NCBI GenBank assembly: GCA_000993115.1
Contig: LBVN01000001.1
Coordinates: 19,924 to 83,923, forward strand
DNA from: Candidatus Woesebacteria bacterium GW2011_GWB1_38_8b
GTDB taxonomy: Bacteria > Patescibacteriota > Microgenomatia > UBA8517
DNA: 64,000 nucleotides
Reading direction: 5' to 3'
The position numbers and the translations under genes are program-made. Positions 8,084-27,666 of the stretch are shown here, piece by piece (the first letter of the stretch is position 1; every line of letters begins with the position of its first letter). The notes under the pieces were generated by a model, which worked only from the letters and a program-made list of their open reading frames with translations, was not told the origin of the DNA and did not search any database.

Positions 8084-8142
8084 ATTTTTGTATATATAAA
8101 CACAAATTATATCAATTTTCTTGTGAAGTTAGAGTGAATAAA

Positions 8143-9066: not shown

Positions 9067-9071
9067 TGTAA

Positions 9072-9626: not shown

Positions 9627-9673
9627 AATATATTTTATGCTACTAATCTAAAGTGTTCTATGTCCAAAATCGT

Positions 9674-9724
9674 AGTTCAACTCCGGTGCCCAAAGTTGGA
9701 GTTCAACTCCGGTGCCCAAAGTTG
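9674..9724. repeat. Tandem direct duplication (two 25-nt copies, 26-nt period) of the 3' terminal codons of gene 9703..10698, extending into its 3' flank
   Basis: agttcaactccggtgcccaaagttg occurs twice (about 9674..9698 and 9700..9724). Copy B encodes the last codons (FGHRS, stop at 9703..9705). Confidence 0.7.
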
Positions 9725-10746: not shown

Positions 10747-12102
10747 TCAGTGATAATTTGACATCCAAATTACATAATCGGCTCCATCAACTCGTCCCGA
10801 ACTATTAAAGTCTCCAACAACGCGTCCTTGTGATGTTGTTTGGTTAAAATGATTAAGCCAGATAATATAGTCGACACCATCAACTCTCCCGTCACCATTT
10901 GCATCCCCCTGAACCAAAACTGTAGTTGGAGTTGGTGTTGGCGTACGAGTCGCTGTTGGAGTGGGTGTATTTGTTACGGCAGGTGTAGGGGTTGGAGTCG
11001 ATTGAGTTGAACCAGGCACCCAACCAGCAAGTTGGGCCATTAAAACCCAATAAGCTTTTGCTATTCTTACGTTTGCAGCACCCATACTGAAGTGGCCATT
11101 TTCGGTTTCTACTGTGTAATGTTGACAAATTGCCGGCTGGTTAATTCTATCATCAGGCCAATTTTCACAAACTGAGGTATTTTGACAATATAACACCCCG
11201 TCCCGGTTATCGTAACATTCCCTACCATCGGGCAGTGTGGCTTCGACATCCGCAAAATCAAGAAGTATTCTATAACGACCATTAGAATCCCGTCCGGAAT
11301 TGATAAATTGACGCATTTGATTATTAAAATTTGTTGAAACTTGTGTACCAATACTTCTTGCTAGACTCGTTGTCTGAAAGACAAAATATTTATTGCTATG
11401 TGCGACCAAACGTCTATCAAGATCGTAGACATCAGCTTTGTCACTGGAGTTATTATAAAAAAAACCACAACGTGGTTGATTACTCCCCCCGCAACTTGTT
11501 AAATTAGCTATAGAATCTCCATCCATCACATTCAAGTAGCTAAACTGGTAAGTATAAACATCAAAATCGTTTAAACTTCTCCCACCCTGAACCTGATTAT
11601 TATCAAGAAAAGTTATGTAATCGTTTGTCATTGTATACCACGTTGAAGCAAACCCTTCATGAATCCAGTTTGCACGATTGTAGCCACCAGTCCTACTCCA
11701 ATAAATATACTCAGGACTAAGATTATAACTTGGGTCGTTATGTACTAATTTTGTACACGTAAAGCTTGCTTGCGAACTTGATGGTGCTTCAAAGCAAGTT
11801 AACGCATCATTAGTAGTTACCCCTACGGAACGATTTCCAAATATTAACCTAATCTTTTCAGCCCTACAGAAATAACTTATTACACCAGTACTATCGTCTA
11901 TACAGTCACCATTTGAATCAGTAGTTGTAAAATCGGGGATTTGTTCGAAAAGAGCAATAGAATTTCTGTTAACAATTATTGGGGACTGCTGCAAGCGAAC
12001 GGATAAATTGGGATCTACCTGCGCATACACATTGCTCCTGCCAATCGAAAGTAATAAAAATGAAAAACAGACGGCAATAACCCTCTTGATAACTTTATAC
12101 AT
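10747..12102 (-). CDS. Secreted dockerin-bearing protein, unknown Cys-rich catalytic domain (family A, paralogue of 14580..15908)
   Basis: Signal peptide ending VYAQV. Conserved block CYDNRDGVLYC...PDD..NQPAICQHYTVE.ENGH..MGAANVRIAKAYWVLMAQLAGWVPG. C-terminal dockerin QGDANGDGRVDGVDYIIWLNHFNQ...GDFNSSGRVDGADYVIWMSNY. Confidence 0.6.
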   Translation of the reverse strand: MYKVIKRVIAVCFSFLLLSIGRSNVYAQVDPNLSVRLQQSPIIVNRNSIALFEQIPDFTTTDSNGDCIDDSTGVISYFCRAEKIRLIFGNRSVGVTTNDALTCFEAPSSSQASFTCTKLVHNDPSYNLSPEYIYWSRTGGYNRANWIHEGFASTWYTMTNDYITFLDNNQVQGGRSLNDFDVYTYQFSYLNVMDGDSIANLTSCGGSNQPRCGFFYNNSSDKADVYDLDRRLVAHSNKYFVFQTTSLARSIGTQVSTNFNNQMRQFINSGRDSNGRYRILLDFADVEATLPDGRECYDNRDGVLYCQNTSVCENWPDDRINQPAICQHYTVETENGHFSMGAANVRIAKAYWVLMAQLAGWVPGSTQSTPTPTPAVTNTPTPTATRTPTPTPTTVLVQGDANGDGRVDGVDYIIWLNHFNQTTSQGRVVGDFNSSGRVDGADYVIWMSNYH

Positions 12103-12164: not shown

Positions 12165-14513
12165 TCAAATACCATAATTATTTAACCAAATTATATAGTC
12201 TGCCCCGTCAACTTTTCCGGAATTATTAAAATCTCCGTTACTATAACCACTGGCATTTTGATCGTAATGATTTAGCCAGATAACATAATCCGCTCCATCT
12301 ACTTTTCCGTCACTATTTGCATCCCCCGGAATGACGGTCGGTGTTGGAGTGAGGGTTGTCTCTGTTGGTGTGGTGTTTAATAAAATTATTGCATCATTTG
12401 GTTGAAGAGTAACTTGATTCACAACACCTCCATCGTTATACCTTGCAATGCTTACAACTTTGAAAGCATCTCCTATGACCACGCCTGTACCCAAAGGCTT
12501 GATAACAACAGTCGACGTCTGATTAAAGTTAAATTTTCCCAAACTGTGCCAGCCAAGAGAACCCAAGGACTGATCAAGGTTGACATCAACTCCATTAATA
12601 CTAACAGTGACATTCTTGCTATAGGTAGTTAATGGTGCCACCCATGCCAAAACATCGTACTCTCCCGCATACGGAATTGTAAAATTGTACGTAAGGCTTG
12701 CATTTGCATTTGGAGCGTTTATTGAATGAATCTTTAATCCCCATTGGTCAAAACTTGCGGCAAGTATAGACCATGAACCGACAGCTATTGCCTGATCGTC
12801 ATCAATTCTTTGAAAATAAAGTGGGGCTTGAGAACCGTTAAGTTTCCGATAAGTTTTATCAAGTGTCACGGTTTGCTGCAGAGGCCCCTCGTTTAGAAGT
12901 ATTGTCCCGTTTTTAAAATGTCTTTGCCATACTCCTCCGACACCCTCCTGAAAGACAATATCGTCAAAGTAAATATCACCGGCAGCTATTCCTAAATCAA
13001 AAAGTAACGTACCATTTGTCCCTGTCCCTATAGCCTTCATTACGTAATAGTACTGCGTCCAATCAGTAAAAAAACGTATGTTATATGCAGCTTGCGCTAA
13101 ATATTCCCATGCACCTCCTGCTCTTTGGATTCTTACCCCGTTATAACGCGAGGTGTTGGCTTTAGCTTTAAAACTTAACGTATAATACTTTCCCGCCTCA
13201 ACTGAAACATAATTTTCTCTGAAAGTCACCCACCCACTTGATGCTCCTCCTATTTGAATGTGAGCAGAGCCGTTTTCTATATTATAGGTTGCTACAACAG
13301 TACTCCCGCTCGTACTTACAAACCAGGGACTAGTACCTGAAGAAAAGTTCCCGTTTACCACCTGATCGGGAGCAGTAATTTGGGAAATTAGCATCGGTGA
13401 GTCGATAGACTGTCCCAAGTATCCCAGCGACGAAACCTGACCTCGGGTACCGTATTCGTCATACCACCAGTTGGATCCCCACATATAGGGACCAAGATCA
13501 TAATGATACATTCCTCCCGCCATCATGGTTGAAACCAACCCAAAGCGCATCCGGTTATAATCAGTGCCATATTCAACCATCATTTCAGGTTTTATTGCCG
13601 TCCAGATATTTTGGAAATTATATTTGCTTCTCATTGTGACGCTGTCGGGAGTGTTTAACACACTAGTAGTGTTGGGAGAAATTGTGTTTTTTGATGTCCA
13701 TACGGAGAAATTATGGATTATTTCGGACCAAGGTCTACCGTAATCATTATCCAAATATCTTTTTATATCCATTTCAAATAATCGACCATTAATCCACTGG
13801 CTGAAATAAGGTGGAGAACCATTACAAAAAATAATCATGCCTGGGAAAGCAGCTCGGAGTCTTTGAAAAATATCAATTACACCTGAGGCATGATCGGCGT
13901 TTACAGTTGCTATATCATCGGGCACGCCATCAACATTCGCGTCAATATCATTGCCTAGTGTAATTGAAACTCCCGAATCATCAACCAAGTCAACTGTTAT
14001 GCCATCAAAATGACCGCCACTTAAATTCCAACGATTTATAAGATAATTTACTATAGTATCTCTACAATAAGTGTTACCCAAATTGGCATAGGCAGCATTA
14101 TATGTGACATCGCGTAAAATTGTCCCTACGGAATTTCGCAATATGCAAGCATAGTCTGGCGAACCAGGAGAAGCATTCCACCACTGAGGTTGGTTATCTA
14201 GACCTCTTCCCGGATCACTGGCAGTAATAATTGTAGCCGTAACTAAAACTTTCGTATTTGGATTTAGCGCATGAACAGCATCAGCCCGATCCTTAGATGA
14301 TTGGCTTGTGCCTGCCGAAGCCATTGACCAAAGATTAAAACCTGCAAAATAATCAGCATTGGTATTCGTATTGTATCCGCCCCACCAATTTAATATACGT
14401 GGATAACCTGAATCAGCATAAACATTTTTAGCAAAGCCTAATAAGGCAACCAAACTGCAAACAAATACAAAGCACATCTTGGTTAGACTTGTTATCACAA
14501 CCTCATTATACAA
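12165..14513 (-). CDS. Secreted glycoside-hydrolase-like TIM-barrel protein with a CBM4/9-like module and a C-terminal dockerin (family B, paralogue of 34445..36694)
   Basis: Signal peptide. N-terminal GHL/GH114-like region (HFDGITVDLV...). Middle module QVVNGNFSSGTSPWF...GWVTFRENYV..GKYYTLSFKAKA, typical of the CBM4/9/22 fold. Dockerin IPGDANSDGKVDGADYVIWLNHYDQN...NGDFNNSGKVDGADYIIWLNNY. Confidence 0.55.
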   Translation of the reverse strand: MYNEVVITSLTKMCFVFVCSLVALLGFAKNVYADSGYPRILNWWGGYNTNTNADYFAGFNLWSMASAGTSQSSKDRADAVHALNPNTKVLVTATIITASDPGRGLDNQPQWWNASPGSPDYACILRNSVGTILRDVTYNAAYANLGNTYCRDTIVNYLINRWNLSGGHFDGITVDLVDDSGVSITLGNDIDANVDGVPDDIATVNADHASGVIDIFQRLRAAFPGMIIFCNGSPPYFSQWINGRLFEMDIKRYLDNDYGRPWSEIIHNFSVWTSKNTISPNTTSVLNTPDSVTMRSKYNFQNIWTAIKPEMMVEYGTDYNRMRFGLVSTMMAGGMYHYDLGPYMWGSNWWYDEYGTRGQVSSLGYLGQSIDSPMLISQITAPDQVVNGNFSSGTSPWFVSTSGSTVVATYNIENGSAHIQIGGASSGWVTFRENYVSVEAGKYYTLSFKAKANTSRYNGVRIQRAGGAWEYLAQAAYNIRFFTDWTQYYYVMKAIGTGTNGTLLFDLGIAAGDIYFDDIVFQEGVGGVWQRHFKNGTILLNEGPLQQTVTLDKTYRKLNGSQAPLYFQRIDDDQAIAVGSWSILAASFDQWGLKIHSINAPNANASLTYNFTIPYAGEYDVLAWVAPLTTYSKNVTVSINGVDVNLDQSLGSLGWHSLGKFNFNQTSTVVIKPLGTGVVIGDAFKVVSIARYNDGGVVNQVTLQPNDAIILLNTTPTETTLTPTPTVIPGDANSDGKVDGADYVIWLNHYDQNASGYSNGDFNNSGKVDGADYIIWLNNYGI

Positions 14514-14579: not shown

Positions 14580-15908
14580 CTATGAACTATAATTGTTAAC
14601 CCAAATAACATAATCCAAGCCATTAACCACACCATCAGAATTAAAATCTCCGTCCAACCTGCCCCAGGAGGTGTTTTGGTTAAAGTGAGAAAGCCAAATT
14701 ACGTAATCAACTCCATCCACCCGACCGTCACTATTTGCGTCAGCCTGATTGTATGACGGAATCGGAGTGAATGTTGGAGTTGGAGTTCTTGTTGACGTTA
14801 CCGTCTGAGTTGGTGTCGCGGTTATTTGTTGCTGTCCTGGGACCCAACCCGCAATCTGAGCAAGTAAAATCCAGTATGCTTTCGCCGATCTTATTAAACC
14901 GCCGCCCAATGTAAGGTGTCCGTTGTCTTGTTCAACAGTATAATTTTGGCAAATAGCCGGGTAATTTTGCCCATCATCAGGATAATTTTCTTGAAAGGTA
15001 GTCATGGGTGTGCAAGCCACACCTTCTTGTTTACGAACATAAGCCACCCCATCTCGGTTATCATAACAACTCACACCGCCTGGTGTATGAGAAATTATAT
15101 CTGCAAAATCAAACAGTATTTTATGATTAGAACTGGCAAAGCTTCGCATCTGATTATTAAACACCTCTCCATCTTCAGCACCGATACTTCTCGCATAACT
15201 TGTAGTCCAATAAATAAAAGCTTTATTTATGTACTGACTTTCAAGCTCAGTAATTCGGCCAATATGCCAGGGTTCATAGCTGTCATGACAGCCTGCCCTG
15301 TTTTGGGTCACCATAAAACCACATAGCGGATTGGCAATATTTGGTTGTTCATTGGTATTTCCTCCAATGTTAAGGTAGCTAAATTGATAGGTAACAATGT
15401 CATAACTGGCGATATTTTGGGGAAATAATGTACTTATAAAATTATCAGTTAAACTGTACCAGGACCCCTCCCGAAAAAGATATACAATATTACTGCGGTT
15501 ATATTTCGCAGGGTCCGGTGTAAATCTAATATCCTGCGGCACCACTCCATTATTCAAGTCTATCTGGTTATACATTCTACTGCACCATTGATTTGTATCA
15601 AAATAAGTTTTACGGCAGGAATTTGGTGACATTGCCCAACTTGTTGCTGTTAAACAGTCAAGTGACTCATTTATATTTTGACCAACGGAGCGGTCAGAGA
15701 AAAACACTCTGATATTTCTGGCGCGCTGCAAATAGTTTTCAGGGATTTGGTCAAATAAACCCAGTGAATTGTGATCGACTACGATTGGATTTGTCTGAAG
15801 GCGAGTTCTCAAGTTCGGGTCAACTTGAGCCTTCGTAATACTTGCAGATAATGAGAAAAAACACACCGCTAAAATTGATAAAAACAATAACTTGAACTCT
15901 TTTTTCAT
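14580..15908 (-). CDS. Secreted dockerin-bearing protein, unknown Cys-rich domain (family A paralogue)
   Basis: Shares blocks with 10747..12102 (AQVDPNL..RLQ, CYDNRDGVAY, YPDDGQNYPAICQNYTVEQDNGH, RSAKAYWILLAQIAGWVPG). Dockerin at the C-terminus. Confidence 0.6.
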   Translation of the reverse strand: MKKEFKLLFLSILAVCFFSLSASITKAQVDPNLRTRLQTNPIVVDHNSLGLFDQIPENYLQRARNIRVFFSDRSVGQNINESLDCLTATSWAMSPNSCRKTYFDTNQWCSRMYNQIDLNNGVVPQDIRFTPDPAKYNRSNIVYLFREGSWYSLTDNFISTLFPQNIASYDIVTYQFSYLNIGGNTNEQPNIANPLCGFMVTQNRAGCHDSYEPWHIGRITELESQYINKAFIYWTTSYARSIGAEDGEVFNNQMRSFASSNHKILFDFADIISHTPGGVSCYDNRDGVAYVRKQEGVACTPMTTFQENYPDDGQNYPAICQNYTVEQDNGHLTLGGGLIRSAKAYWILLAQIAGWVPGQQQITATPTQTVTSTRTPTPTFTPIPSYNQADANSDGRVDGVDYVIWLSHFNQNTSWGRLDGDFNSDGVVNGLDYVIWVNNYSS

Positions 15909-15930: not shown

Positions 15931-18924
15931 TTAATTGTAATTTGTAAGCCAAATCACGTAATCTGCTCCGTTTACAACTCCATCGTTATTAAAGTCGCCA
16001 CTGCTTGCTCCGCTAACATTCTGGCTAAAATGACTAAGCCATATTACATAATCTGCTCCGTCCACACGTCGGTCACCATTTGCATCCCCGGGAATATCTA
16101 CTGGTGTAGGAGTTTGTGTTACCGTAGGAGTTGGGTCGCCGTTTGACGGTGCTTCAATTGCAGCCACCAAATTTTGGATATAAAACAAATCTCCCCTCTC
16201 GAAAGCAGGAACATCCAGATACTTGATTAATTCTTCCCTGGGTTCATTTAATATGTAAGCTTTAGCCAAGAAAAGGGCATGATAATTGTAAAGGGTTTGT
16301 GTGCCCGACTCGCCCATGTCATTTTCAAAACGGTTCACAAACCAGTATTGATTTAAATATTGGTATTCAGCCAAGGCTGTATTAACCTTAGCGGTAGCAT
16401 TAGCGGCTAAATAATCACCCAACTCGGGCGTAAGCCATATAAAATTTCTCGCTGTATCGTATTTATGGCGGATAGAATCGGTGGGAAAAGAAAACGACTC
16501 CTTGGAAAAAGCCGACGCACGCCAGGTTAGAAGCCTGTTTAATTCATTAGTGACATTAGTCCGCAACGTTCCATCAGTTGAAACCATTCCGGCCAGAGTC
16601 TGCAACTGTAAAAAGCCGTTATAGCCGGCGATCTGGCTATTAATGTCATAAGGCGCGTTGGTCATAAAATAACTATCGCTAGTGGCCGGTACTTTTACTT
16701 TTGATTTAGCCAAATCATAAATTTGCCTGGTGGTTGGGCGGGCAGATTCGGGAATATTGGCCGCATATTTCCATAAGGCATAAAGATTATGCTGGGGATA
16801 ATTCCAGGCATGACCATTGGAATAGAGTTGTTTGGGGTGGTTTTGGTAATCGCCAACTACCTCAGGCGGTCTTACCGCAGGATGTCTTTCTTCGCCCTCG
16901 GACCACCCTTGTTGGGAGTAAGCAATCGGTGAAAAATATTCTGGCCACACTAAATCCCGTAAGTATGTAGCCACACTAGTTTTATTAGTTTGATTAAGAT
17001 GAGGATAGGCAAGAGTTAGCGCCATTAATGTGTCGCCGGGATTGATAAAATATGTGGGCAACATCCCATAAGTAGCTATATTACCTTGGCCCTGATTATA
17101 GTAACCGGGTTTGAGTAAACCAGCTGACACGATTTTTTGGATTTCATTGTCTAAAATGGAATTTAGGTTGGGAGTAGATACGGAGGTTTGGCTAGATTGG
17201 ACTGGCAAATAGTTTTTTTTACCCTGCGAAGTTCCCGTGCCTAAAGCGATGATTGCATTAGACCTGTGGATAAACAACCTGCCGTTATGTGGGATGAACG
17301 GATTTTGAACACCGTGGCTATTGAAAACACCGTTGGAGGTTTTAATACCATCATCAGATGTGCTGTACCAATCGCGAGCGCCTACATAGGTTCCTTGGTG
17401 GCGGGAAATGGCTCCATCCCAGATATACCACATTTCATCATAACCGGGAGCCAGACGGGAAATGGCAGTGCCTGATGTAAGATATGGCCAGTATTCTATG
17501 CCCGCTGCTGTCCGGCTAGTACCATATGAAGCGGCTACCCTATCACAGCACAAACTGGTATAAATTCTGTTTCCTCCCATGGAGAGGGAAAGGGGTTCAT
17601 CCCGGGCATAGTTACGGCTGCCGGCCATAGAAATTTTATTAGGGGAATCCAAATTCCAGCCGGCGATAATGCCTCGGATGGTAAAAGTTCCGATACCTTG
17701 GGGCACAGTATAAGAAGTTGTGATGTATAAAATGTTGTTACTGCCAACGGCTGGCGGGTACATTGGGCCGGATTCTACCCCCCACCAAATTACCGGAATA
17801 GATTCGCTCAGACCGTCATTATCGGAATCAAAAGTAAATTCCTGACCGTTTGATTGATTAATTACAAAATATTTCTTCCGCCAGGGTTTATGATTCGGGC
17901 GTAAAAGGCCAGCCGTGTCACCGATCTGTTCCTGGGCGTTTGGAGTTTCCAAATACTCGCGAATAACGGTTGGCTCGTAAACATCATATCCTCCTGACCA
18001 GGATTCGGGGCCAAGATTTACTCCTAAAACATTATCGGGTGCCACCTGATTAAAATCGTAAATTTCGGCGTGGATAAATTGAGTTTTGTTTTCCTGCATG
18101 TTCATTGACATAGTTCCGGGGTCATAACCATCGCGGTAAGGAGCAGAAAGGCCAAAAATAACTTTATCCCGCCAGACCACCGGCCAATAGGCACCAAAAG
18201 GCTCACCGATTTGGATACCTGTATTCCAAACAACGGCACCAGTACCGGCTCTGAGGGCATAAAAACGGTTATTCATGGCCGATGCATATACAATACCGTC
18301 TTTATACGCAGCTGATGTCTGGAATGAACTTTGATTTTGTGCCACGTACCTCCACACAACATTACCCTGACTTGGGTGACCCTGACCGCCTATGGCATAA
18401 AAATTTCCATCGCGGTTGCCGATCAAAACCAAAGTTTGATTATTAGTATAACTGTCTTTAATAACCAAAGGGTTGGCACTAAAGCCGGCGCCAGCTTCGT
18501 AGGACCAATATAACTGGCCGGTAGCTGCATTTAAGGCATAGAGTTTGTGATCGAAACCGCCGACATAGACGACATTTTCAAAAATAGTTGGGGAATGTCC
18601 GAGGGGCAACTGGGTATCAAAACGCCAGACAGTGTCGCCGTTAGTAGCATTAAGAGCATATAAACCCTTTCCCGTTGATACGTATATCATATTATTAAAC
18701 GCCACCAACTGGACGTGCTGAGGGATGTAAGCTTCAATAGGTCTATACCATTCAACGTTCAAACTACCGGAAACTTCCTGGCTGACCCAGCTTGTTCTTG
18801 CTGGGTTTGCTCCTGCCATTGACCAATCCGAAGATGTCTGTGCATAAATCACACTAACCTTTCCACTAAAAAACAGAATTAAAAATAAAAATACGGAGAA
18901 TATTCTTCTAACTTTTTTAAACAT
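15931..18924 (-). CDS. Secreted PQQ-repeat beta-propeller protein with a large unknown C-terminal domain and a dockerin (family C, copy 1 of 3 tandem paralogues)
   Basis: Signal peptide VIYAQT. Repeated PQQ-type motifs (YALNATNGDTVWRF, YALNAATGQLYWSY). Conserved distal block YLNQYWFVNRFENDMGES. Dockerin GDANGDRRVDGADYVIWLSHF...GDFNNDGVVNGADYVIWLTNY. Confidence 0.6.
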   Translation of the reverse strand: MFKKVRRIFSVFLFLILFFSGKVSVIYAQTSSDWSMAGANPARTSWVSQEVSGSLNVEWYRPIEAYIPQHVQLVAFNNMIYVSTGKGLYALNATNGDTVWRFDTQLPLGHSPTIFENVVYVGGFDHKLYALNAATGQLYWSYEAGAGFSANPLVIKDSYTNNQTLVLIGNRDGNFYAIGGQGHPSQGNVVWRYVAQNQSSFQTSAAYKDGIVYASAMNNRFYALRAGTGAVVWNTGIQIGEPFGAYWPVVWRDKVIFGLSAPYRDGYDPGTMSMNMQENKTQFIHAEIYDFNQVAPDNVLGVNLGPESWSGGYDVYEPTVIREYLETPNAQEQIGDTAGLLRPNHKPWRKKYFVINQSNGQEFTFDSDNDGLSESIPVIWWGVESGPMYPPAVGSNNILYITTSYTVPQGIGTFTIRGIIAGWNLDSPNKISMAGSRNYARDEPLSLSMGGNRIYTSLCCDRVAASYGTSRTAAGIEYWPYLTSGTAISRLAPGYDEMWYIWDGAISRHQGTYVGARDWYSTSDDGIKTSNGVFNSHGVQNPFIPHNGRLFIHRSNAIIALGTGTSQGKKNYLPVQSSQTSVSTPNLNSILDNEIQKIVSAGLLKPGYYNQGQGNIATYGMLPTYFINPGDTLMALTLAYPHLNQTNKTSVATYLRDLVWPEYFSPIAYSQQGWSEGEERHPAVRPPEVVGDYQNHPKQLYSNGHAWNYPQHNLYALWKYAANIPESARPTTRQIYDLAKSKVKVPATSDSYFMTNAPYDINSQIAGYNGFLQLQTLAGMVSTDGTLRTNVTNELNRLLTWRASAFSKESFSFPTDSIRHKYDTARNFIWLTPELGDYLAANATAKVNTALAEYQYLNQYWFVNRFENDMGESGTQTLYNYHALFLAKAYILNEPREELIKYLDVPAFERGDLFYIQNLVAAIEAPSNGDPTPTVTQTPTPVDIPGDANGDRRVDGADYVIWLSHFSQNVSGASSGDFNNDGVVNGADYVIWLTNYN

Positions 18925-18935
18925 TAATAATTATA

Positions 18936-21926
18936 TTAGATTATATAATTATTAACCCAGATTACATAGTCAGCTCCATCTACTCTTCCAGAGTTGTCAA
19001 AATCGCCATCACGAAAGCCTGTTGAAGTGTTTTGATTAAAATGGTTTAGCCAAATTATATAATCCGCTCCATCAACTCTTCCATCTCCGTTTGCGTCTCC
19101 TAGAATAACTACCGGAGTTGGTGTTTGGGTTACGGTAGGTGTGGACCCGCTGTTTGATGGCGCCTCAATCGCAGCTACCAAGTTTTGTATATAGTACATA
19201 TCACCACGCTCCCATGCAGGAACATCTAGGTACTTAATTAATTCTTCCCTTGATTCATTTCTGATCCAGGCTTTGGCTAAAAATAAGGCGTGATAATTAT
19301 GAAAGTGCTCTGTGCTTGATTCACCCATATCATTTTCAAAACGATTAACAAACCAATATTGGTTGAGGTATAAGTATTCGTCGAGGGCCTGATTAACCTT
19401 GGTGGAAATATTATTGGCCAGATAATCAGCCAATTCCGGGGTAAGCCAAAGGAAATTGGCCGAAGTGTCCATCTTGTGTTGGACTCTCATATCGGGGTAA
19501 GCATATGATTCTTTAGTAAAGGCCGATGCCCGCCAAGACAATAAGCGGTTGAGTTCTGTTTGAACACTGTTTCTGAATGTAGCGTCAGCGGGTGGTGATC
19601 CTGCCATTGTATATAGTCCCAAATAACCATAATATCCTGCTATCCAGGAATTAATGTTATAAGGCGTCGTCGTCATCACGTTGGTATCTGTTGTTGCCGG
19701 AACTTGTGTCTTACTCCGAGCCACTTGGTATAACTCCGAAATCGGGGGACGTGAACTTTCGGGAACATTTTGGGCATATTTCCAGATGCCATAAATACTA
19801 TGTTGTGGATATTGCCAACTATGACCCGAGGCGGTTTGGCTTTTCCCAAAATTGGCATAATCGGCCGTAATTTCGGGGGGTAGGGAAATAGGTTGACGGT
19901 CAGCACCTTCGGCAAAGCCGCGAGTTGCGTATGCAGTAGGGTAAAAGTACATCGACCATTCTTCTCGAATATAATTTGCCAGGCTGGTTTTGGAGCCGGA
20001 GGAGAGATAAGGGTAGGCCTGAGCAAGGGCCAATAAAGTATCACCAGGGAAAGTAAAGTAATTAAAAATCTGACCCCATTGGGCTAATAATTGATTTTGG
20101 ACATGGTAACCTGCTTTTAAATGACCAGCATTTATCATTTTCATAATTTCATTTTCCAAAAGAGCAGTAAGATTCGGTTGTACAACCGCCGACTGAGTAT
20201 TTTGTATCGGTAAATATGTTTCCTTCCCTTGAGCAGTTCCCGGACCAAGGGCGATAATCGCATTTGAACGATGTATAAAAAGTCGTCCATTATGCGGAAT
20301 AAGAGGATTTTGAACACCATGACTATTCATAGATGCATTTGTTGTTTTGACTCCATCATCCGCTGTTCCATACCAATCTTTAGCACCAACATAACTACTT
20401 TGGTGTCGGTCTATTGCTCCACTCATTACCCACCACATTTCATCATATCCAGGTGCTTTACCGCTGCCCGAGAGGGTATACCACCAATATCTGATACCCT
20501 GTTGGCCTGATGTTATAGGAAATGAAATAGCCGGACGGTCACAACATAAGCTCGTGTATACCCGATTCCCCGCCATTGAAATTGACAAAGGTTCATCTAT
20601 GGCATATGAATTACCGTCACTAAAACTTAGTTGTGAGGGAAAATCCAAATTCCAACCCATAACTTGTCCGCGAGAAAATCTGGCCGTAAAATACGCTAAA
20701 TTATTAGGTCCGATTGCTGGTGGAAACATTGGCCCTGATTCGGCTCTCCAGTACAAAAGTGGAATATATTCCCGCAAGCCGTCTCCATCAGAATCAAAAG
20801 TAAACTCCATACCATCATTCTGATTGATCACATAATATTCCCGTCTCCAAGGCTTGTGACCATATCTATTTCGACCAACGGGGTCATTTTGAATCTCCTC
20901 AGGTGTTGGCTGTTCTAAATATTCCCTTGCATACTGGGTATCAGTTACGCTGTATCCACCAGACCAGGATGTCGGAGGTAAAATTTCACCGACCGAGTCA
21001 ACTCCTGATGTATTGTTACCAGGATTTATTGCGTTTATTGCAGCTCTTTCTGCCCCGTTGAAGTCGGTGTAACTTGTGCCATCAGGAGCAATTATTGAAC
21101 TAGCTCCTGGACGGGAACCGTCCTTAATGTCTGAAGATTTAGAAACAATAATTTTGTCCCGATATATAACTGGCCAATAGGCCATGAAAGGATCACCTTG
21201 CCACTGGCCAGAAATCCAACGTGCTTGACCTTGAGTATTACTAGTATTCACATTTAAGGCATAGAGACGGTTGTTCATTGCAGTTGTATAAACCACTCCA
21301 TCTTTATAGGCTGCTGACATAATGATTGAACTGTTATTTGGTATTGTATATTTCCAAATAACTCTTCCCTGTTGGGGGTGACCATGAGCACCAATCGCAT
21401 AGAAATTTCCGTCTCTGTTACCTACCAAAATCACGGGTTGATTATTTGTATAACTGTCTTTAATCACAATTGGATTAACACTATATCCCGCCTGTGCATC
21501 ATTAAAAGACCAAAGCATTTGGCCTGTAGCAGCATCCAAACAATAAAGTTTTTTGTCATGATTACCTACATAAACCTTTCCTTCAAATATAGTAGGAGAG
21601 TGTCCCATTGGAAGCCCCGTATCAAAATGCCAAACAGTACTGCCATTGGCGGCATTTAAAGCATATAAACCCTTCCCTGTAGAAACGTAGATAATATTAT
21701 TATATGTGACCAACTGGACATGTTGAGGAATATAGGCTTCTATAGGCCTATACCATTCTACAATCAAATTACCATCGACTTGTGTATTTACCCAACTGGT
21801 ACGTGACGGGTTTGCCCCCGCCATATACCAATCGGATGATGTTTGAGCCAAAGATTCGGCGGTTACTGTCAGCAATAAACAAAAAGAAACCAAAACTGAC
21901 AGATACCATTTCTTAAACATAACCAT
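18936..21926 (-). CDS. Secreted PQQ-repeat beta-propeller dockerin protein (family C, copy 2)
   Basis: Collinear with 15931..18924 throughout. Dockerin at the C-terminus. Confidence 0.6.
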   Translation of the reverse strand: MVMFKKWYLSVLVSFCLLLTVTAESLAQTSSDWYMAGANPSRTSWVNTQVDGNLIVEWYRPIEAYIPQHVQLVTYNNIIYVSTGKGLYALNAANGSTVWHFDTGLPMGHSPTIFEGKVYVGNHDKKLYCLDAATGQMLWSFNDAQAGYSVNPIVIKDSYTNNQPVILVGNRDGNFYAIGAHGHPQQGRVIWKYTIPNNSSIIMSAAYKDGVVYTTAMNNRLYALNVNTSNTQGQARWISGQWQGDPFMAYWPVIYRDKIIVSKSSDIKDGSRPGASSIIAPDGTSYTDFNGAERAAINAINPGNNTSGVDSVGEILPPTSWSGGYSVTDTQYAREYLEQPTPEEIQNDPVGRNRYGHKPWRREYYVINQNDGMEFTFDSDGDGLREYIPLLYWRAESGPMFPPAIGPNNLAYFTARFSRGQVMGWNLDFPSQLSFSDGNSYAIDEPLSISMAGNRVYTSLCCDRPAISFPITSGQQGIRYWWYTLSGSGKAPGYDEMWWVMSGAIDRHQSSYVGAKDWYGTADDGVKTTNASMNSHGVQNPLIPHNGRLFIHRSNAIIALGPGTAQGKETYLPIQNTQSAVVQPNLTALLENEIMKMINAGHLKAGYHVQNQLLAQWGQIFNYFTFPGDTLLALAQAYPYLSSGSKTSLANYIREEWSMYFYPTAYATRGFAEGADRQPISLPPEITADYANFGKSQTASGHSWQYPQHSIYGIWKYAQNVPESSRPPISELYQVARSKTQVPATTDTNVMTTTPYNINSWIAGYYGYLGLYTMAGSPPADATFRNSVQTELNRLLSWRASAFTKESYAYPDMRVQHKMDTSANFLWLTPELADYLANNISTKVNQALDEYLYLNQYWFVNRFENDMGESSTEHFHNYHALFLAKAWIRNESREELIKYLDVPAWERGDMYYIQNLVAAIEAPSNSGSTPTVTQTPTPVVILGDANGDGRVDGADYIIWLNHFNQNTSTGFRDGDFDNSGRVDGADYVIWVNNYII

Positions 21927-21964
21927 TTATATCAAAATATGTGAGCTAAAGAAAGTAAAGATTA

Positions 21965-24900
21965 CTATGAAGTGTAGTTTGTAATCCAAATTACATAATC
22001 AGCGCCATTTGTTACTCTATCGTTGTTAAAATCACCATCACGCGCTCCATTTCCCGTGTTTTGGTTAAAGTGAGAAAGCCAAATTACGTAGTCCACTCCA
22101 TCAACGCGGCCGTCACTATTTGCGTCACCGGGTATAGGTATTGGAGTCGCTGTAGGTCCACCTGATGATGGAGCCTCAATTGCCGTAACAAGATTCTGAA
22201 TGTAAAACAAGTCTCCCCGCTCAAATGCGGGTACGTCTAGGTATTTTACTAACTCCTCACGGCGTTCTTTTAATAACCAGGCTTTTGCTTGAAAAAGCGG
22301 TCCATAGTTCCAGAGGGTTGAGTGAGAAGATTCTCCCATGTCGTTTTCAAAACGCGAAACGAACCAATACTGGTTTAAATACTGAATTTCAGTCATAGCT
22401 TGATTTATCTTGTCGGGGATTTGTTGGACTAAATAATCTGCAAGTTCTTGAGTCATCCATATATAGTTTCGGGGTGTATCCAATTTATGTTGAACTGAAC
22501 GATCATAGGCATATGAAGAGTCTTTTGAAAAGACTTGTGTGCGCATTGGCAGGATTCGGTCAAGATTTGTTCGTGCTGTTGTACAAGAAGTTTGCTCAGT
22601 TGATGGTAAGTCAGTACAAGCCGAATTAGAACCAAGATTGTAAGTTAATCTTTGAAGATTAAGATAACCAATATACCCTCCAATCCATCCATTATGTTCG
22701 TACGGAAACTGAGTAAAATACTCTTCCAGAGTTGCGTAATATTGAACAGGCGGGTTAGGAACCGCTCGTACTTTAGATTTCGCTATCTGGTAAAGCCGTT
22801 GGTTTGAAAGACGCTGGGACTCGGGAACATTTTGAGCGTATTTCCAGAGAGCATAAAGGTTTATTTGAGGATACTGCCACAAGGCCGCATTGGTATTTAA
22901 AACTTTAGGAAAATTTGTAAAATCCCTCTCAACTTCAGGGGCTTGTGGAACCGGATGACGGGATACACCTTCAGTCCACCCACGAGTGGAGTAAGCTGCA
23001 GAATCCCAGTAGGCTGTAACTTCTTGGGAGAGATATTGAGCAAGTTGGCTTTTAAGATTATCAGAAATATGCGGATAAGCCAGTGATAAAGCCAATAAAG
23101 TATCCCCTGGATTTTCAAAATATGTTGTAAGGTTTCCAAAAAGTGACAACGCAAACTGTCCCTGAACATGATATCCAGGTTTTAGTAATCCTGCTGATAT
23201 CATTTTCTGCACCTCTTGATCTAATTTTGATGTCAAATTCGGAACCTTAACGCTTGAGGTAGCAGTGGTAACTGGTAGATATGGAATTTTACCTAAAGGG
23301 GTACTAGTCCCAAGGGCAACAATTGCATTTGATCGATGAATAAAAAGCTTCCCGCGATGGGGAACAAGCGAATTTTGTGAACCGTGACTATTATATGTAG
23401 CGTTCATGGTTTTAATTCCATCTGAAGAAGTTCCGTACCAATCAAGTGCTCCAACATAAGTAGATTGATGACGATCGATTGCAACAGGCATAACATACCA
23501 CATTTCATCATATCCGGGAGCTTTGCCGCTTCCGCCTAATGTATATCGCCAAAAAGAAAATGGGCTAAACAAACTACCTAAACTGCGGTCTGTAGGAATA
23601 GAAAAAATTAGACGATCGCAACAAAGGCTGGTAAATAGTAGTCTCCCGCCCATGCTAATAGCATTGGGTTCATCACGCGCATAATTCTCGTTATCAGCAT
23701 ATGCCAACATATTTGGAAAACTTGGATTCCAAGCACTTACATAACCCCTAACGCTACCATTGGGGGGAGTACCAAAATAATTTGCCCCGGGTATATAAAG
23801 AAGTCCATTTCCACCAACGGCGGGTGGGTACATAGGACCAGACTCGGCTCTCCACAAAAGAACTGGTAAATATTCAGCTAATCCATCATTATCAGAATCC
23901 CATGTATATTCACTACCATCAGATTGATTAATAACAAAATATTGACGGCGCCAAGGTTTGTGACCATAACGATTCATCCCCGCCGGATCTGAAATACGCT
24001 CCGCTTCGGTTGGCTCCTCCAGATATTCTCGAGCATAGATCATATCAACAACACTATATCCCCCAGACCAGGATTGAGGACCTAGATTTGTTCCAAGGGT
24101 TCCATCCGGACTTAAACCCGCAACATCACGTCTCTCGGCATGGCCGGTTTGCTGACCTCCTGTAGCATTCAAAGACGCCGAACCTGGACGATTACCATCG
24201 CGGTATGACTCAGATTTCCCAAAAACAACTTTATCCCTGAATACCACAGGCCAATAAGAAGCATAAGGTTCTCCCAGCTGTGGCAAAGTGACCCAAACAT
24301 CACGATCACTCGCTGACGGGCTCACTCTTAACGCATAAAACCGATTTAGTAAATCGGAAAAATAAATTATACCGTTGGCATATGCAGCCGAAGTCGTTAA
24401 TGGACTACCCGCACTATATCTCCAAACCACCTGACCCGCTTGGGGATGTCCTTGTCCTCCAATAGCATAAAAATAGCCATCACGATTACCTACTAATACT
24501 AAAGTCTGGTTATTTGTATTTTGGTCACGAATAACAATAGGGTTTGCACTAAAACCTCCGTCAGCCTCATGGGACCACAATTTGACGCCACTGTTTGCAT
24601 TGAGTGCGTAAAGCTGATGATCAAAACCACCAACATAAACTATCCCATCAAATACTGTTGGTGAATTACCTAATGGTAACTGAGTATTAAAAGTCCATAC
24701 AGTTTGTCCGTTATTGGCATTTAGTGCGTATAGCCCTCGTCCCGTTGAGACATAAACAATATCATTAACCGTCACCAATTGAACATGTTGAGGAATATAA
24801 GCCTCGATCGGACGGTACCATAATACATAATTGCCATCAAAGTGGTTGGGGAAAGTGGGTTCTTCGCTAACCCAACTGGTTCTTGCCGGGTTTGCTCCAG

Positions 24901-25012
24901 CCATATACCAATCTGAGGATGTTTGGGCATACGAAGTATCAATTCCAAAAGCGGATAAAAAAGATAACAAACCAACTATGACAGAAAGCGCTATTTTCAC
25001 CCTCATGTACAT
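21965..25012 (-). CDS. Secreted PQQ-repeat beta-propeller dockerin protein (family C, copy 3)
   Basis: Collinear with the two downstream copies. Dockerin at the C-terminus. Confidence 0.6.
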   Translation of the reverse strand: MYMRVKIALSVIVGLLSFLSAFGIDTSYAQTSSDWYMAGANPARTSWVSEEPTFPNHFDGNYVLWYRPIEAYIPQHVQLVTVNDIVYVSTGRGLYALNANNGQTVWTFNTQLPLGNSPTVFDGIVYVGGFDHQLYALNANSGVKLWSHEADGGFSANPIVIRDQNTNNQTLVLVGNRDGYFYAIGGQGHPQAGQVVWRYSAGSPLTTSAAYANGIIYFSDLLNRFYALRVSPSASDRDVWVTLPQLGEPYASYWPVVFRDKVVFGKSESYRDGNRPGSASLNATGGQQTGHAERRDVAGLSPDGTLGTNLGPQSWSGGYSVVDMIYAREYLEEPTEAERISDPAGMNRYGHKPWRRQYFVINQSDGSEYTWDSDNDGLAEYLPVLLWRAESGPMYPPAVGGNGLLYIPGANYFGTPPNGSVRGYVSAWNPSFPNMLAYADNENYARDEPNAISMGGRLLFTSLCCDRLIFSIPTDRSLGSLFSPFSFWRYTLGGSGKAPGYDEMWYVMPVAIDRHQSTYVGALDWYGTSSDGIKTMNATYNSHGSQNSLVPHRGKLFIHRSNAIVALGTSTPLGKIPYLPVTTATSSVKVPNLTSKLDQEVQKMISAGLLKPGYHVQGQFALSLFGNLTTYFENPGDTLLALSLAYPHISDNLKSQLAQYLSQEVTAYWDSAAYSTRGWTEGVSRHPVPQAPEVERDFTNFPKVLNTNAALWQYPQINLYALWKYAQNVPESQRLSNQRLYQIAKSKVRAVPNPPVQYYATLEEYFTQFPYEHNGWIGGYIGYLNLQRLTYNLGSNSACTDLPSTEQTSCTTARTNLDRILPMRTQVFSKDSSYAYDRSVQHKLDTPRNYIWMTQELADYLVQQIPDKINQAMTEIQYLNQYWFVSRFENDMGESSHSTLWNYGPLFQAKAWLLKERREELVKYLDVPAFERGDLFYIQNLVTAIEAPSSGGPTATPIPIPGDANSDGRVDGVDYVIWLSHFNQNTGNGARDGDFNNDRVTNGADYVIWITNYTS

Positions 25013-25062: not shown

Positions 25063-27666
25063 TCATATATAATTGGTTAACCAAATAACATAGTCTGCAC
25101 CGTCAACTCTCCCATTATTATTAAAATCACCATTACTTGCCCCCCCAACGTTTTGGTTGTAGTGGTTTAACCAAATAACATAGTCTGCACCGTCAACCTT
25201 TCCATCCCCGTTTGCGTCTCCGGGAAACACCGTCTGTGTGGGTGTGATTGTTTGAGTGGTAGTTGGGGTCGTAATGGAAATTGTGTGATTACCTTCTGCC
25301 ACCCTTATTCTTACAAAACCATTACCAGACGTAAGAACTGTTGGACTCAAATTATCTATCAATAATCCCATAATTCCCGGATAGTATATAGTAATATCAT
25401 TCTCACTCCCCGAATAAAATTTCCCATTAGTGCCTTTTAAGTGGATGCTTAAATCCTGAGTGGATTCAAAACCTATTCTTTCTGAGCCGTAAGAAAACGA
25501 CCTTCCTTTCCTGACGAAATAAAAATTAAGCGACTGGTTATTTTTTCTGAAAATTGCTGCGGGTCCTTGAAAACTTGCTCCCTGATAAGTTATGAGGTTG
25601 TTTCCTTTTGATTCCAGAAGGAAATCATTGACTCCGCCTCCATGGATCAACTCTGCTCCACTATAATTATTACCCTGAAGTCTGTTCATTTGGGGTTTAA
25701 GATGGTTTGCATCTGTTGGAAAAAGGACAGTCACAATATTTTTCTTATTGTCCGAATCCAACTGATATGTTGAAAAGAGATATTTACCAATTATTGATTT
25801 TCTCTCGTCGTAATTATCCCAATGACATAAAACTCCATTTAAAATATCCACCTGTTGCGGTTGCGTTCCAAGAAATAACGAAATTCCTGCCATAGAATTA
25901 TTAAACACGTTTGTTCCAAGCGGTGCCAAATATTCAGCTTTATCAGTTACAACAGAAGTGGTTTCTGAATTCGGGTGCAATACAATATTGGTAACTCCCG
26001 ACGAGGTTGCAGTTACTTCATCAAATAATGCAAAATAACCGTTTTTTGAGTCCTGTGGATGAATAAAGACAAAATTTCTGATATGAGTACCATTTGGTAA
26101 TGCGGATCCAGAATTTCCTGAAGCATAATCAAAAAGACCACCAGTAATTCCCTCAATAATCCCCAAACCGGATTTTCCCTGATGATCATTTACGTTACTA
26201 GGGTCGAGAGGGTTTCCTATTTGATAATTTATTAACGCAGTATTATTTGATACGGCTCTATGGCTTAGGTAATTAGGAGTATAACGCTGATTTTGTGGTA
26301 GGTAGTCCGGACAACTATCCGCTCCGGCGTTTGTGCTCGCACCACCAAATCCCCCATTCACCAACAATGGCTCTCCATAACCAGCAATATAAACTGAATT
26401 AATATCGTCATGCATATGAAACTCGGGGCTGTTCGGATTTGGGATGTTAACATTCCAAAGCACTCCATACAAACTACCATCAACAGAGTTAGATTCAAGA
26501 AAAAAGGATCCTCCGTTAGGGAAAATCCTGCTTTCCGGTTTTTGGGCAACAGAATTATCTCTTAACAAAACATAATTAATTAATCTACCCTTAAAACCCA
26601 AGTCTAAATCAGGTCGTAATCTACTAGCCGTTTGCCATTTCCAGTATGCATATTGTCCTGCGAGATTCGAATATTGATTAGCCCCCGCGATATGCGCACT
26701 CTCTATTAGCCTTGATCCATTGCCAAAAGACCATAGCGGATAATAGTCCGAAGTATCACCAAAAGATGCTTCAACAGCGAATGGTGTACTGGCATATCCA
26801 TACAACCACTCATGCAGATTTTTAAATCTTGAATTGTTATAATATCTGTTATCGACACCCGTAAATTCCAATACATCTGGAAGCATTGTTCTCTCGTCTC
26901 GATTGTGTCCCCAGGCTACATATCCATACCCAGGACCTTCGTAGTAGACTCCATCCGGACTAATACGTGCGACCAACTCTGGCATAAATCCTGTAATCGG
27001 GCGACTATCTCCCGGACGTCTGCCTCCATTTAATAAAACCCGGATATATGGATCGTCTCCCTTTTTACCAAGATATAAGCTCCAAATAATTTGCGTACTT
27101 TCCCAAAGCGGGGGTTTATCTGAAAACGCGTTATAGTAATGATTGTATTCTTGGGTTAGCCAGTACTCACTGTCCAACAAATCCTGACTGTTAAGAGAAT
27201 CATGTATTACATCCAAAGCTAAAATACTATGAAAGAACGCAGTGGCAGGATAAACATATGCGTCTTGAGAATAGACAATATTTCCATCTGGAGGGTGTTG
27301 GAAATTTAATATATCACTCCATTTTGGATAACTTTCCACCAGTTTTTGTTTATAAACTTCTTGATTATTTTGATCCAAAATAAAAGCCAAACTACAAGAA
27401 CTCATAATATCTCGCATGGTAAAGCTTTTTTTACTTCCAATAGGAGGATTGGAAAGATCGTAAACAGTATTTTGACAAGTAGCTACGGCGTCATCCTTCA
27501 TCTCTCTCCAAGGGGACTGTAAAGTTCGGTTTCTCAAAGATGCAAAATCACTCGCTTTAACAATTAAAAATGGGTGCTGAGTCTGTGCAAAAGCTTTCTG
27601 AGGGATTTTAACCAAAAAAATTGACGTTAAAATAATTGACAATAATAACTTACATGTCATCTTCAC
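25063..27666 (-). CDS. Secreted polysaccharide-lyase-like protein (alginate-lyase/heparinase II-III-like N-terminal alpha-toroid plus beta-sandwich) with a C-terminal dockerin
   Basis: Signal peptide ...AFAQT. The N-terminus HPFLIVKASDFASLRNR resembles the start of heparinase II/III-like lyases. Dockerin FPGDANGDGKVDGADYVIWLNHYNQN...NGDFNNNGRVDGADYVIWLTNY. Confidence 0.4.
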   Translation of the reverse strand: MKMTCKLLLSIILTSIFLVKIPQKAFAQTQHPFLIVKASDFASLRNRTLQSPWREMKDDAVATCQNTVYDLSNPPIGSKKSFTMRDIMSSCSLAFILDQNNQEVYKQKLVESYPKWSDILNFQHPPDGNIVYSQDAYVYPATAFFHSILALDVIHDSLNSQDLLDSEYWLTQEYNHYYNAFSDKPPLWESTQIIWSLYLGKKGDDPYIRVLLNGGRRPGDSRPITGFMPELVARISPDGVYYEGPGYGYVAWGHNRDERTMLPDVLEFTGVDNRYYNNSRFKNLHEWLYGYASTPFAVEASFGDTSDYYPLWSFGNGSRLIESAHIAGANQYSNLAGQYAYWKWQTASRLRPDLDLGFKGRLINYVLLRDNSVAQKPESRIFPNGGSFFLESNSVDGSLYGVLWNVNIPNPNSPEFHMHDDINSVYIAGYGEPLLVNGGFGGASTNAGADSCPDYLPQNQRYTPNYLSHRAVSNNTALINYQIGNPLDPSNVNDHQGKSGLGIIEGITGGLFDYASGNSGSALPNGTHIRNFVFIHPQDSKNGYFALFDEVTATSSGVTNIVLHPNSETTSVVTDKAEYLAPLGTNVFNNSMAGISLFLGTQPQQVDILNGVLCHWDNYDERKSIIGKYLFSTYQLDSDNKKNIVTVLFPTDANHLKPQMNRLQGNNYSGAELIHGGGVNDFLLESKGNNLITYQGASFQGPAAIFRKNNQSLNFYFVRKGRSFSYGSERIGFESTQDLSIHLKGTNGKFYSGSENDITIYYPGIMGLLIDNLSPTVLTSGNGFVRIRVAEGNHTISITTPTTTQTITPTQTVFPGDANGDGKVDGADYVIWLNHYNQNVGGASNGDFNNNGRVDGADYVIWLTNYI

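Follow-up and report, generated by a model that had tools for sequence, protein, structure and literature searches.

Three tandem dockerin proteins of a Candidatus Woesebacteria genome carry the propeller-plus-helical unit of a widespread, unannotated protein family

We analyzed a 64,000-nt stretch of Candidatus Woesebacteria bacterium GW2011_GWB1_38_8b (contig LBVN01000001.1, positions 19,924 to 83,923; hereafter the window), which encodes three adjacent paralogous proteins of 997, 996, and 1015 amino acids (aa), here called A, B, and C. An initial annotation had described them as dockerin proteins with an N-terminal propeller of pyrroloquinoline quinone (PQQ)-type repeats and a large distal domain of no recognizable family. 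The three genes were found as it described them. They are complete open reading frames (ORFs) arranged head to tail, with spacers of 11 nt (A/B) and 38 nt (B/C), and their products share 56–61% aa identity in pairwise end-to-end alignments (~980 aligned residues). All three have the same architecture (Table 1). Judging from its sequence, the signal peptide of A is probably cleaved before QTSSDW.

The N-terminal propeller was confirmed in all three proteins, but it extends well beyond the part that Pfam can see. Pfam detected PQQ repeats only at aa ~60–270 (PQQ_2, 50–65 bits in A, B, and C, and Beta-prop_ACSF4). The 3D structure of mature A (aa 28–935) was modeled using AlphaFold2 with a 74-sequence alignment (predicted local distance difference test, pLDDT, 89.7; predicted TM-score, pTM, 0.93). 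In this model, β-strands ran to model residue 535 (aa ~562), and the propeller as a whole covers aa ~29–565. Its insert is less conserved than the rest. Foldseek aligned 520–600 columns of the model to eight-bladed propellers with E values of ~1e-14, and these included BamB, quinoprotein dehydrogenases (8gy2, 1yiq, 1kv9, and 1flg), and tetrathionate hydrolase. Because the model and the Foldseek matches indicated a single propeller reaching to aa ~565, the HRSNAI(I/V)ALG motif (aa 553–562 of A) is placed in the hairpin of the last blade. The initial annotation had located it in the region after the propeller.

Conservation was analyzed with 52 full-length homologues that are ~40–48% identical to A. 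In these, R554 and N556 of the HRSNAI block were invariant, and H553 and S555 were at least 93% conserved. The same level of at least 93% was reached by D366, D368, D370, G371, and E374 of the DSDNDG loop and by the adjacent cysteines Cys459 and Cys460. From its motif type, the loop is probably a Ca2+ site of the propeller. The cysteine pair, which is present in A, B, and C, may form a vicinal disulfide.

We considered whether the propeller is a true quinoprotein oxidoreductase that oxidizes sugars or alcohols with PQQ or another quinone, the cysteine pair stacking the cofactor and the helical domain holding the substrate. The propeller is related to the eight-bladed quinoprotein dehydrogenases, it contains a DxDxDG calcium-type loop, and its conserved LCCDR motif is reminiscent of the CCDxVNRG vicinal-disulfide motif of methanol dehydrogenases, although in a different blade. 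The match to the dehydrogenase family TIGR03075, however, reached 57.3 bits against a cut-off of 480. The Cys-Cys pair of the dehydrogenases lies in their N-terminal part (near residue ~105), whereas that of A lies at aa 459–460, in the C-terminal part of the propeller, and the stretch (aa ~30–190) that aligns to dehydrogenase residues ~25–190 has none. A profile that included the Cys-Cys region matched no PDB quinoprotein at E values up to 10. The window contains no cytochrome or pqq genes, and the bacteria that encode the family, Anaerolineae and members of the candidate phyla radiation (CPR), are not known to have PQQ synthesis or respiratory partners. Such a propeller also occurs in cofactor-free enzymes, as in tetrathionate hydrolase. 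We therefore consider quinoprotein activity highly improbable.

Behind the propeller, A contains a separate all-helical domain of ~340–360 aa. The initial annotation had proposed an unassigned region of ~450 aa; of its two marker blocks, YLNQYWFV(N/S)RFENDMGES (aa 856–873 of A) does fall within the helical domain, and HRSNAI belongs to the propeller. The domain was modeled with confidence when aa 567–929 were submitted alone (pLDDT 91.5, pTM 0.91). In the YLNQYWFV block, W861 and E872 were invariant and R865 was at least 93% conserved. R680, N827, E834, D904, and D912 were also invariant, and these seven residues all fall in loops of the domain or in the first turns of its helices.

That this domain could be assigned to no family held in all searches run. 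Pfam gave no match to it with the three proteins and with 73 members of the distal alignment (E up to 10), and NCBIfam gave none either. PDB sequences were searched with one of the proteins and with profiles of the full length and of the distal part, and only propeller and dockerin matches came up. With the domain-only model, Foldseek found no match at E ≤ 0.001 in PDB or in the BFVD viral structures. The best PDB fold matches were the polysaccharide lyase (PL) family 35 glycosaminoglycan (GAG) lyase 8khv (E = 0.029, TM-score 0.36) and chondroitinase 9o3q (E = 0.041, TM-score 0.39). Weaker ones were PL17 and the glycoside hydrolase (GH) families GH76, GH15, GH78, GH81 (TM-score 0.48), and GH9. 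Complement thioester domains, 14-3-3 proteins, and armadillo-like proteins, which are not carbohydrate enzymes, were also matched. A relation to the 867-aa protein encoded next to the triplet was rejected, as hhalign of the distal profile gave a probability of 0.5%.

The three genes are old duplicates kept by purifying selection. Their nucleotide sequences are only 59–61% identical in pairwise comparisons, and the proportion of synonymous differences is saturated (pS 0.76–0.80) against a nonsynonymous proportion (pN) of 0.27–0.31. Because of this saturation, the ratio of nonsynonymous to synonymous substitution rates (dN/dS) could not be calculated, and the dN/dS comparison suggested earlier as a check for sub-functionalization was uninformative. 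Assemblers are known to fail at tandem repeats, and in another assembly (L086) the B orthologue is broken into pieces of 747 and 246 aa. An assembly artefact, or a set of decaying pseudogene duplicates, was nevertheless refuted. The copies share only ~60% of their DNA, the reading frames are intact in all three, and nonsynonymous differences are far rarer than synonymous ones. Each copy keeps 184–202 of 222 family-conserved positions, with 20 deviations in A, 38 in B, and 34 in C. In addition, the independent ENA assemblies L086 and L087 both contain a tandem of a C orthologue (1015 and 1013 aa, respectively) and a B orthologue, so that duplicated assembly of identical DNA is ruled out.

In a neighbor-joining tree, B clustered with P0121, to which it is 94% identical, and with two single-copy genes, those of WWE3 UBA1379 (66%) and of the metagenome-assembled genome (MAG) SKW179 (68%). 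A and C branched outside this group. B was 66–68% identical to the homologues at loci L003 and L004. By this placement, the gene that related CPR genomes have in single copy is orthologous to B. Since B joins the single-copy genes of other genomes and A and C fall outside, the duplications appear to be older than the split of the WWE3 UBA1379 and MAG SKW179 lineages. Faster evolution of A and C may alternatively have caused their outside position.

The helical domain is not special to this locus, which qualifies the novelty proposed for it. It is the constant C-terminal half of a widespread, database-visible, and unannotated family. A profile search covering 1.84 billion representative proteins, clustered at 50% identity, found the propeller-plus-helical combination in 1,284 clusters at E ≤ 1e-3 and in 408 at E ≤ 1e-30. 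Relatives occurred in 234 GTDB species genomes. Most of these are Chloroflexota, including Anaerolineae, Ardenticatenaceae, Caldilineaceae, Thermoflexus, and the cultured Bellilinea caldifistulae GOMI-1; a few are CPR genomes (WWE3, Woesebacteria, Microgenomates, and Roizmanbacteria). Searching with the propeller part returned hundreds of full-length proteins of 880–940 aa, mostly from Anaerolineae, and the database labels of full-length members read only "PQQ-binding-like beta-propeller repeat protein" or "BamB". Searching with the distal part returned ~170 "hypothetical" proteins without Pfam domains. Many of these represent fragments or the back half of a split ORF. Full-length homologues are abundant, and the notion that the propeller is missing from most homologues was rejected.

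Split ORFs of the homologous gene were seen at L001 (6991–9884), where the two parts overlap by TGATG inside a variable propeller insert, at L002 (7010–9749), with an overlap of 44 nt, and at L086 (10001–12984). They may be sequencing frameshifts or real split genes.

The Chloroflexi homologues have hydrophobic, signal-like N-termini, and nearly all of those inspected stop directly after the last toroid helix. Therefore, the propeller-plus-toroid unit is the whole mature protein there. In longer members the unit is followed by CBM96, CHB_HEX_C_1, Fn3_assoc, Laminin_G_3, PKD, Big, DUF5060, or dockerin modules, a range typical of extracellular carbohydrate enzymes. Apart from the window, dockerins of its type were detected on family members only at the CPR loci L003 and L039. 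Among the 52 full-length members, 204 positions in both domains were at least 93% conserved, with Asp, Glu, Arg, Asn, Tyr, and Trp frequent among them. A, B, and C all retain R680, N762, Y768, N827, E834, E872, D904, and D912 as well as the Cys-Cys pair and the DxDxDG loop.

The genes around family members were then compared. All five Pfam-annotated Chloroflexi loci contained genes for a Wzm/Wzt ATP-binding cassette (ABC) exporter, GT2 glycosyltransferases, and BNR_2 propeller proteins, and most of the five also contained a radical S-adenosylmethionine (SAM) gene, sulfotransferases, Wzy_C, or Acyl_transf_3. Nine such context genes were scored at the 39 non-CPR loci whose 8-kb flanks were complete. 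Of these loci, 20 had Wzm/Wzt and 23 a BNR_2 protein. At least three of the nine genes were present at 24 loci, and none at 13.

A partner gene was also conserved. The 442-aa dockerin protein encoded directly downstream of A is 49% identical over 322 aa to the product of L085 8856–9971, the gene directly upstream of the L085 family gene, and 30% identical to the equivalent product at L001. Relatives of the 442-aa protein lie near the family gene at 29 of 85 loci, and those of its 451-aa copy in the window at 27 of 85. Apart from the dockerin, the partner proteins gave no Pfam or PDB match. Motifs of the partner family include SDRSVGQNINE, YQFSYLN, and ICQxYTxExxxGHL. The family gene and the partner gene are the portion of the Chloroflexi locus that CPR genomes share.

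The claim that the paralogues are three dockerin-bearing copies was supported: A, B, and C all carry dockerins, cohesin proteins are encoded nearby, and nearly all family-conserved residues are kept. The Dockerin_1 (PF00404) scores were 17.9, 25.7, and 19.4 bits for A, B, and C, respectively, so that only B passed the cut-off of 22.9. Two C-terminal dockerin repeats are nonetheless visible in A and C; in B, one was found by regular expression and the other in the alignment. About 14 ORFs with dockerin repeats lie on the minus strand between 9.7 and 41.8 kb of the window. Of the two cohesin proteins, the one with hydrophobic segments at both ends is probably a membrane-anchored scaffold and a candidate docking site, and the one that itself ends in a dockerin may be an adaptor. 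Because both are encoded in the window, surface display of A, B, and C through cohesin-dockerin binding is plausible.

Table 1. Features of the window discussed in the text (positions counted from the first nucleotide of the window)
Feature	Position	Strand	Basis
Paralogue A, 997 aa: signal peptide, propeller, helical domain, Thr/Pro linker, dockerin	15931-18924	-	ORF, Pfam, AlphaFold
Signal peptide of A, MFKKVRRIFSVFLFLILFFSGKVSVIYA	18841-18924	-	read from sequence
Eight-bladed PQQ/BamB-like β-propeller of A, aa 29-565; partly helical insert at aa ~270-335	17230-18840	-	Pfam, AlphaFold, Foldseek
DSDNDG of A, aa 366-371, DxDxDG-type loop, with E374	17812-17829	-	conservation
Adjacent Cys459-Cys460 (LCCDR), only cysteines of mature A	17545-17550	-	conservation
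HRSNAI block of A, last-blade β-hairpin beside the helical domain	17251-17268	-	model strands 522-527 and 530-535
All-helical domain of A, aa ~585-925, 11-12 main helices, α/α-toroid-like	16150-17172	-	domain-only AlphaFold model
YLNQYWFVNRFENDMGES of A, conserved long loop of the helical domain	16306-16359	-	between model helices 817-830 and 852-864
Dockerin of A, two Ca-binding repeats DANGDRRVDGADYVIW and DFNNDGVVNGADYVIW	15934-16092	-	Pfam Dockerin_1, motif scan, translation
Paralogue B, 996 aa, architecture as A; post-propeller stretch including helical domain at 19149-20231	18936-21926	-	ORF, Pfam, alignment
Paralogue C, 1015 aa, architecture as A; post-propeller stretch including helical domain at 22160-23296	21965-25012	-	ORF, Pfam, alignment
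Partner gene, 442 aa, with dockerin, directly downstream of A	14580-15908	-	identity, locus survey
Second partner-gene copy, 451 aa, with dockerin	10747-12102	-	ORF, Pfam
Cohesin protein: N-terminal hydrophobic segment, cohesin, Thr/Pro-rich linker, C-terminal hydrophobic helix	8143-9066	-	Pfam Cohesin, translation
Cohesin module, possible second cohesin-like module, C-terminal dockerin	40282-41829	-	Pfam Cohesin and Dockerin_1, translation
867-aa dockerin protein upstream of the triplet, N-terminus HPFLIVKASDFASLRNR	25063-27666	-	
892-aa protein, DUF5060 and dockerin	36684-39362	-	
CBM4_9 and Golvesin_C pair, 749 and 782 aa	34445-36694 and 12165-14513	-	
β-helix protein pair, 606 and 585 aa	27748-29568 and 32758-34515	-	
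Large serine recombinase (Resolvase, Recombinase, Zn_ribbon_recom), next to secA	1860-3434	+	

In the best-supported reading, to which we give about an even chance, the propeller-plus-helical unit is an uncharacterized extracellular glycan-processing enzyme. In this proposal, A, B, and C would be exported by the Sec pathway as proteins of ~100 kDa each. The model is confident in showing a rigid two-domain unit, and the propeller, packed on the ~340-aa toroid-like helical domain, would form one conserved functional unit with it. This would be a depolymerase or trimming enzyme, either a hydrolase or a lyase, acting on a complex surface or matrix polysaccharide that is possibly acidic or sulfated. 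The substrate site would lie on the loop-rich face of the helical domain, which carries the motifs GWxxGxxR, WxYPPxN, NAYIAGY, ARNFxxLxPEL, YWFVxRxExxxxE, and DVPAFxRGD. It would probably face the last propeller blade with its HRSNA motif and might be completed by it. In Chloroflexota, the unit makes up the entire mature protein, encoded in loci for ABC-transporter-dependent (Wzm/Wzt) surface glycans. In the genome of the window, a Thr/Pro linker and a dockerin have been added, and the probably membrane-anchored cohesin protein would hold the three copies on the cell surface alongside about a dozen other dockerin proteins.

Conservation of polar residues at 40–48% identity, with invariant ones in loops of the helical domain, fits an enzyme better than a scaffold. 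The likeness to toroid folds of carbohydrate enzymes, the carbohydrate-type fusions, the Wzm/Wzt context, the partner gene, the neighbors in the window, and the signal peptides, dockerins, and cohesins that point to surface display were also counted for this reading. Several points weigh against it. No catalytic residues were assigned, and the fold matches of the helical domain were nonsignificant (best E = 0.029, TM-scores 0.36–0.48), with the nonenzymatic 14-3-3 proteins and complement thioester domains among them. The polysaccharide gene context was absent from about one-third of the Chloroflexi loci and from the CPR loci. Literature searches on CPR dockerins, λ-carrageenase propellers, the sulfated exopolysaccharide of Anaerolineae, and propeller-plus-toroid lyases retrieved no paper on the family. 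Finally, BamB-like propellers are often pure interaction scaffolds.

An alternative is that the unit is a noncatalytic adhesin or scaffold, binding a glycan or a protein such as a host surface component or an envelope-assembly partner, with the three copies providing three specificities. BamB, which like many PQQ-like propellers is an interaction platform, was among the best structural matches, and the helical domain drew armadillo-like proteins in addition to the two nonenzymatic groups just named. No catalytic motif was identified, and the PKD, Big, and cadherin-like modules of longer members occur in adhesins too. However, 204 polar-rich positions conserved across phyla and in both domains are unusual for a pure binder, and the conserved residues cluster in loop regions of the helical domain. 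Genes for glycan synthesis and export consistently surround the family gene, and a protein that is itself no more than a lectin would have little need of the carbohydrate-binding modules found fused to some members. We regard a purely binding role as possible but rather unlikely.

The enzyme proposal can be extended into a more specific and speculative scenario. The unit would found a new carbohydrate-active enzyme family whose active site is formed jointly by the propeller, with its vicinal disulfide and Ca2+ loop, and a divergent toroid. Its role in Chloroflexota would be to remodel their own, possibly sulfated, Wzm/Wzt-exported surface polysaccharide. CPR bacteria such as Woesebacteria and WWE3 would have acquired the enzyme together with the partner gene, added dockerins, and multiplied them. 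They would use the copies on their surface either for attachment to the envelope glycans of filamentous Chloroflexi hosts or for cutting a way through these glycans. We consider this complete scenario distinctly unlikely as it stands.

If the glycan-processing assignment is true, a cross-phylum family of ~1,300 clusters would become a candidate for a new family of glycoside hydrolases or polysaccharide lyases. Its defining half is absent from Pfam and NCBIfam, and no PDB fold matches that half closely. The family would also offer a handle on the surface polysaccharides of Anaerolineae, which are abundant filaments of digesters, sediments, and wastewater. Unannotated domains are common in secreted modular proteins, and the helical domain is a well-defined target rather than a surprise.

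Other dockerin ORFs of the window encode CBM4_9 with Golvesin_C, GHL10, β-helix, and DUF5060 modules, several of them in duplicated pairs. The 749-aa ORF of the CBM4_9 pair stops after the first dockerin half-repeat (34466–34513) and overlaps the next ORF by 71 nt; this may be a truncated dockerin or a frameshift. For the 867-aa protein upstream of the triplet, the dockerin was the sole match in Pfam, NCBIfam, and PDB sequence searches. Its N-terminus and its HMHDDxNSVYIAGYG motif are reminiscent of heparinase II/III-like lyases. Its homologues adjoin the family gene at the CPR loci L003 and L040 (37–39% identity). Relatives of the 892-aa DUF5060 protein, 30–40% identical, are located near the family gene at L003, L046, L037, and L074, and the family members P0107, P0241, and P0361 are fused directly to DUF5060. 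These neighbors and fusions together suggest a functional link between the two families.

The core genes of the window were compared with those of other genomes. SecA (3435–6257, minus strand) is 76% identical to SecA on the Woesebacteria DeMMO6_59 contig (L039) and ~70% identical to that of many named Woesebacteria, and the four genes at 7409–10698 are syntenic with the DeMMO6_59 contig. These core genes mark the organism as a Woesebacteria-like CPR bacterium. In contrast, A, B, and C are 55–68% identical to the homologues of WWE3 UBA1379 and MAG SKW179 and only ~40% identical to that of L039. Given this contrast between SecA and the triplet, gain, loss, or transfer seems to shape the dockerin-enzyme array, and the core genome appears to evolve separately from it. 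The serine recombinase gene next to secA may mark the boundary of a mobile element or prophage.

We compared the proteins with characterized systems. The PL35 GAGases (8KHV/8KHW), like the PL15, PL17, PL21, PL12, and PL8 enzymes, combine a toroid-like helical domain of ~320–350 aa with an all-β domain. In toroid lyases, the toroid and the β domain flank the active site, the former providing Asn and Tyr and the latter His (PMC12088678). By analogy, a similar geometry is plausible for the unit of A, B, and C. The arrangement differs, however. Lyases of the PL35, PL15, PL17, and PL21 type have a C-terminal two-layer antiparallel β-sandwich with the catalytic His, whereas the family has an N-terminal eight-bladed propeller. 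At the position of the sandwich, the Chloroflexi proteins end with the last toroid helix and A has its linker and dockerin. No sequence similarity to PL35-type lyases was detected, and the TM-scores were 0.36–0.39. The Asn/Tyr/His triad was not mapped in the family, and N713, one candidate for the Asn, is Ser in B. The six-hairpin glycoside hydrolases of GH15, GH76, GH78, GH81, and GH9 share the α/α-toroid look with the helical domain, and conserved acids of the family (E834, E872, D904, and D912) are located in loops or helix starts. Their E values were 0.25–0.9 and their TM-scores at most 0.48; no Pfam match was obtained, and a catalytic pair was not identified.

The propeller has the eight-bladed fold and the blade sequence motifs of BamB, quinoprotein alcohol and methanol dehydrogenases, and tetrathionate hydrolase. 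Its blades are the eight PQQ blades expected of PQQ dehydrogenases (PF01011), and the N-terminal SDWxMAGANPxRTSW strand resembles the N-terminus of the quinoprotein dehydrogenases. None of these proteins has the large propeller inserts and the fused helical domain. Identity with BamB was rejected: the TIGR03300 score was 59.6 bits against a cut-off of 285.2, the signal peptide ends in ...VIYA/QTSS with no lipobox Cys, and the proteins are ~600 aa longer than BamB. The GH150 λ-carrageenase CglA is a secreted protein of ~940 aa whose N-terminal PQQ-like propeller and further lobes form a cleft for a highly sulfated glycan (PMC12549532). A, B, and C resemble it in size, secretion, and the N-terminal propeller. 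The corresponding Pfam model, Beta-prop_CGLA (PF25292), was marginal: it gave 18.2, 23.6, and 26.2 bits in the three copies (cut-off, 26.8) and covered ~60 of 316 model positions, or about one blade pair. Pfam showed no match beyond the propeller, and a tblastn search of plasmids for a GH150 relationship returned only generic PQQ-repeat proteins. On the features tested, A, B, and C do not belong with BamB, the PQQ dehydrogenases, GH150, or the PL35-type lyases.

The locus as a whole is comparable to cellulosome-type display systems. Two-repeat Ca-binding dockerins on ~14 proteins with predicted secretion, a probably membrane-anchored cohesin protein, and a candidate cohesin-dockerin adaptor are all encoded together. 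The differences are that the host is a small-genome CPR bacterium, that the cargo consists largely of families without known activity rather than classical cellulases, and that the scaffold apparently has only one or two cohesins. As predicted from their sequences, the ~14 dockerin ORFs and two cohesin proteins make up a compact locus for cellulosome-like display, here in a Woesebacteria-like CPR genome and with cargo mostly of unannotated function, and this locus bears on how small-genome bacteria interact with polymers or host cells.

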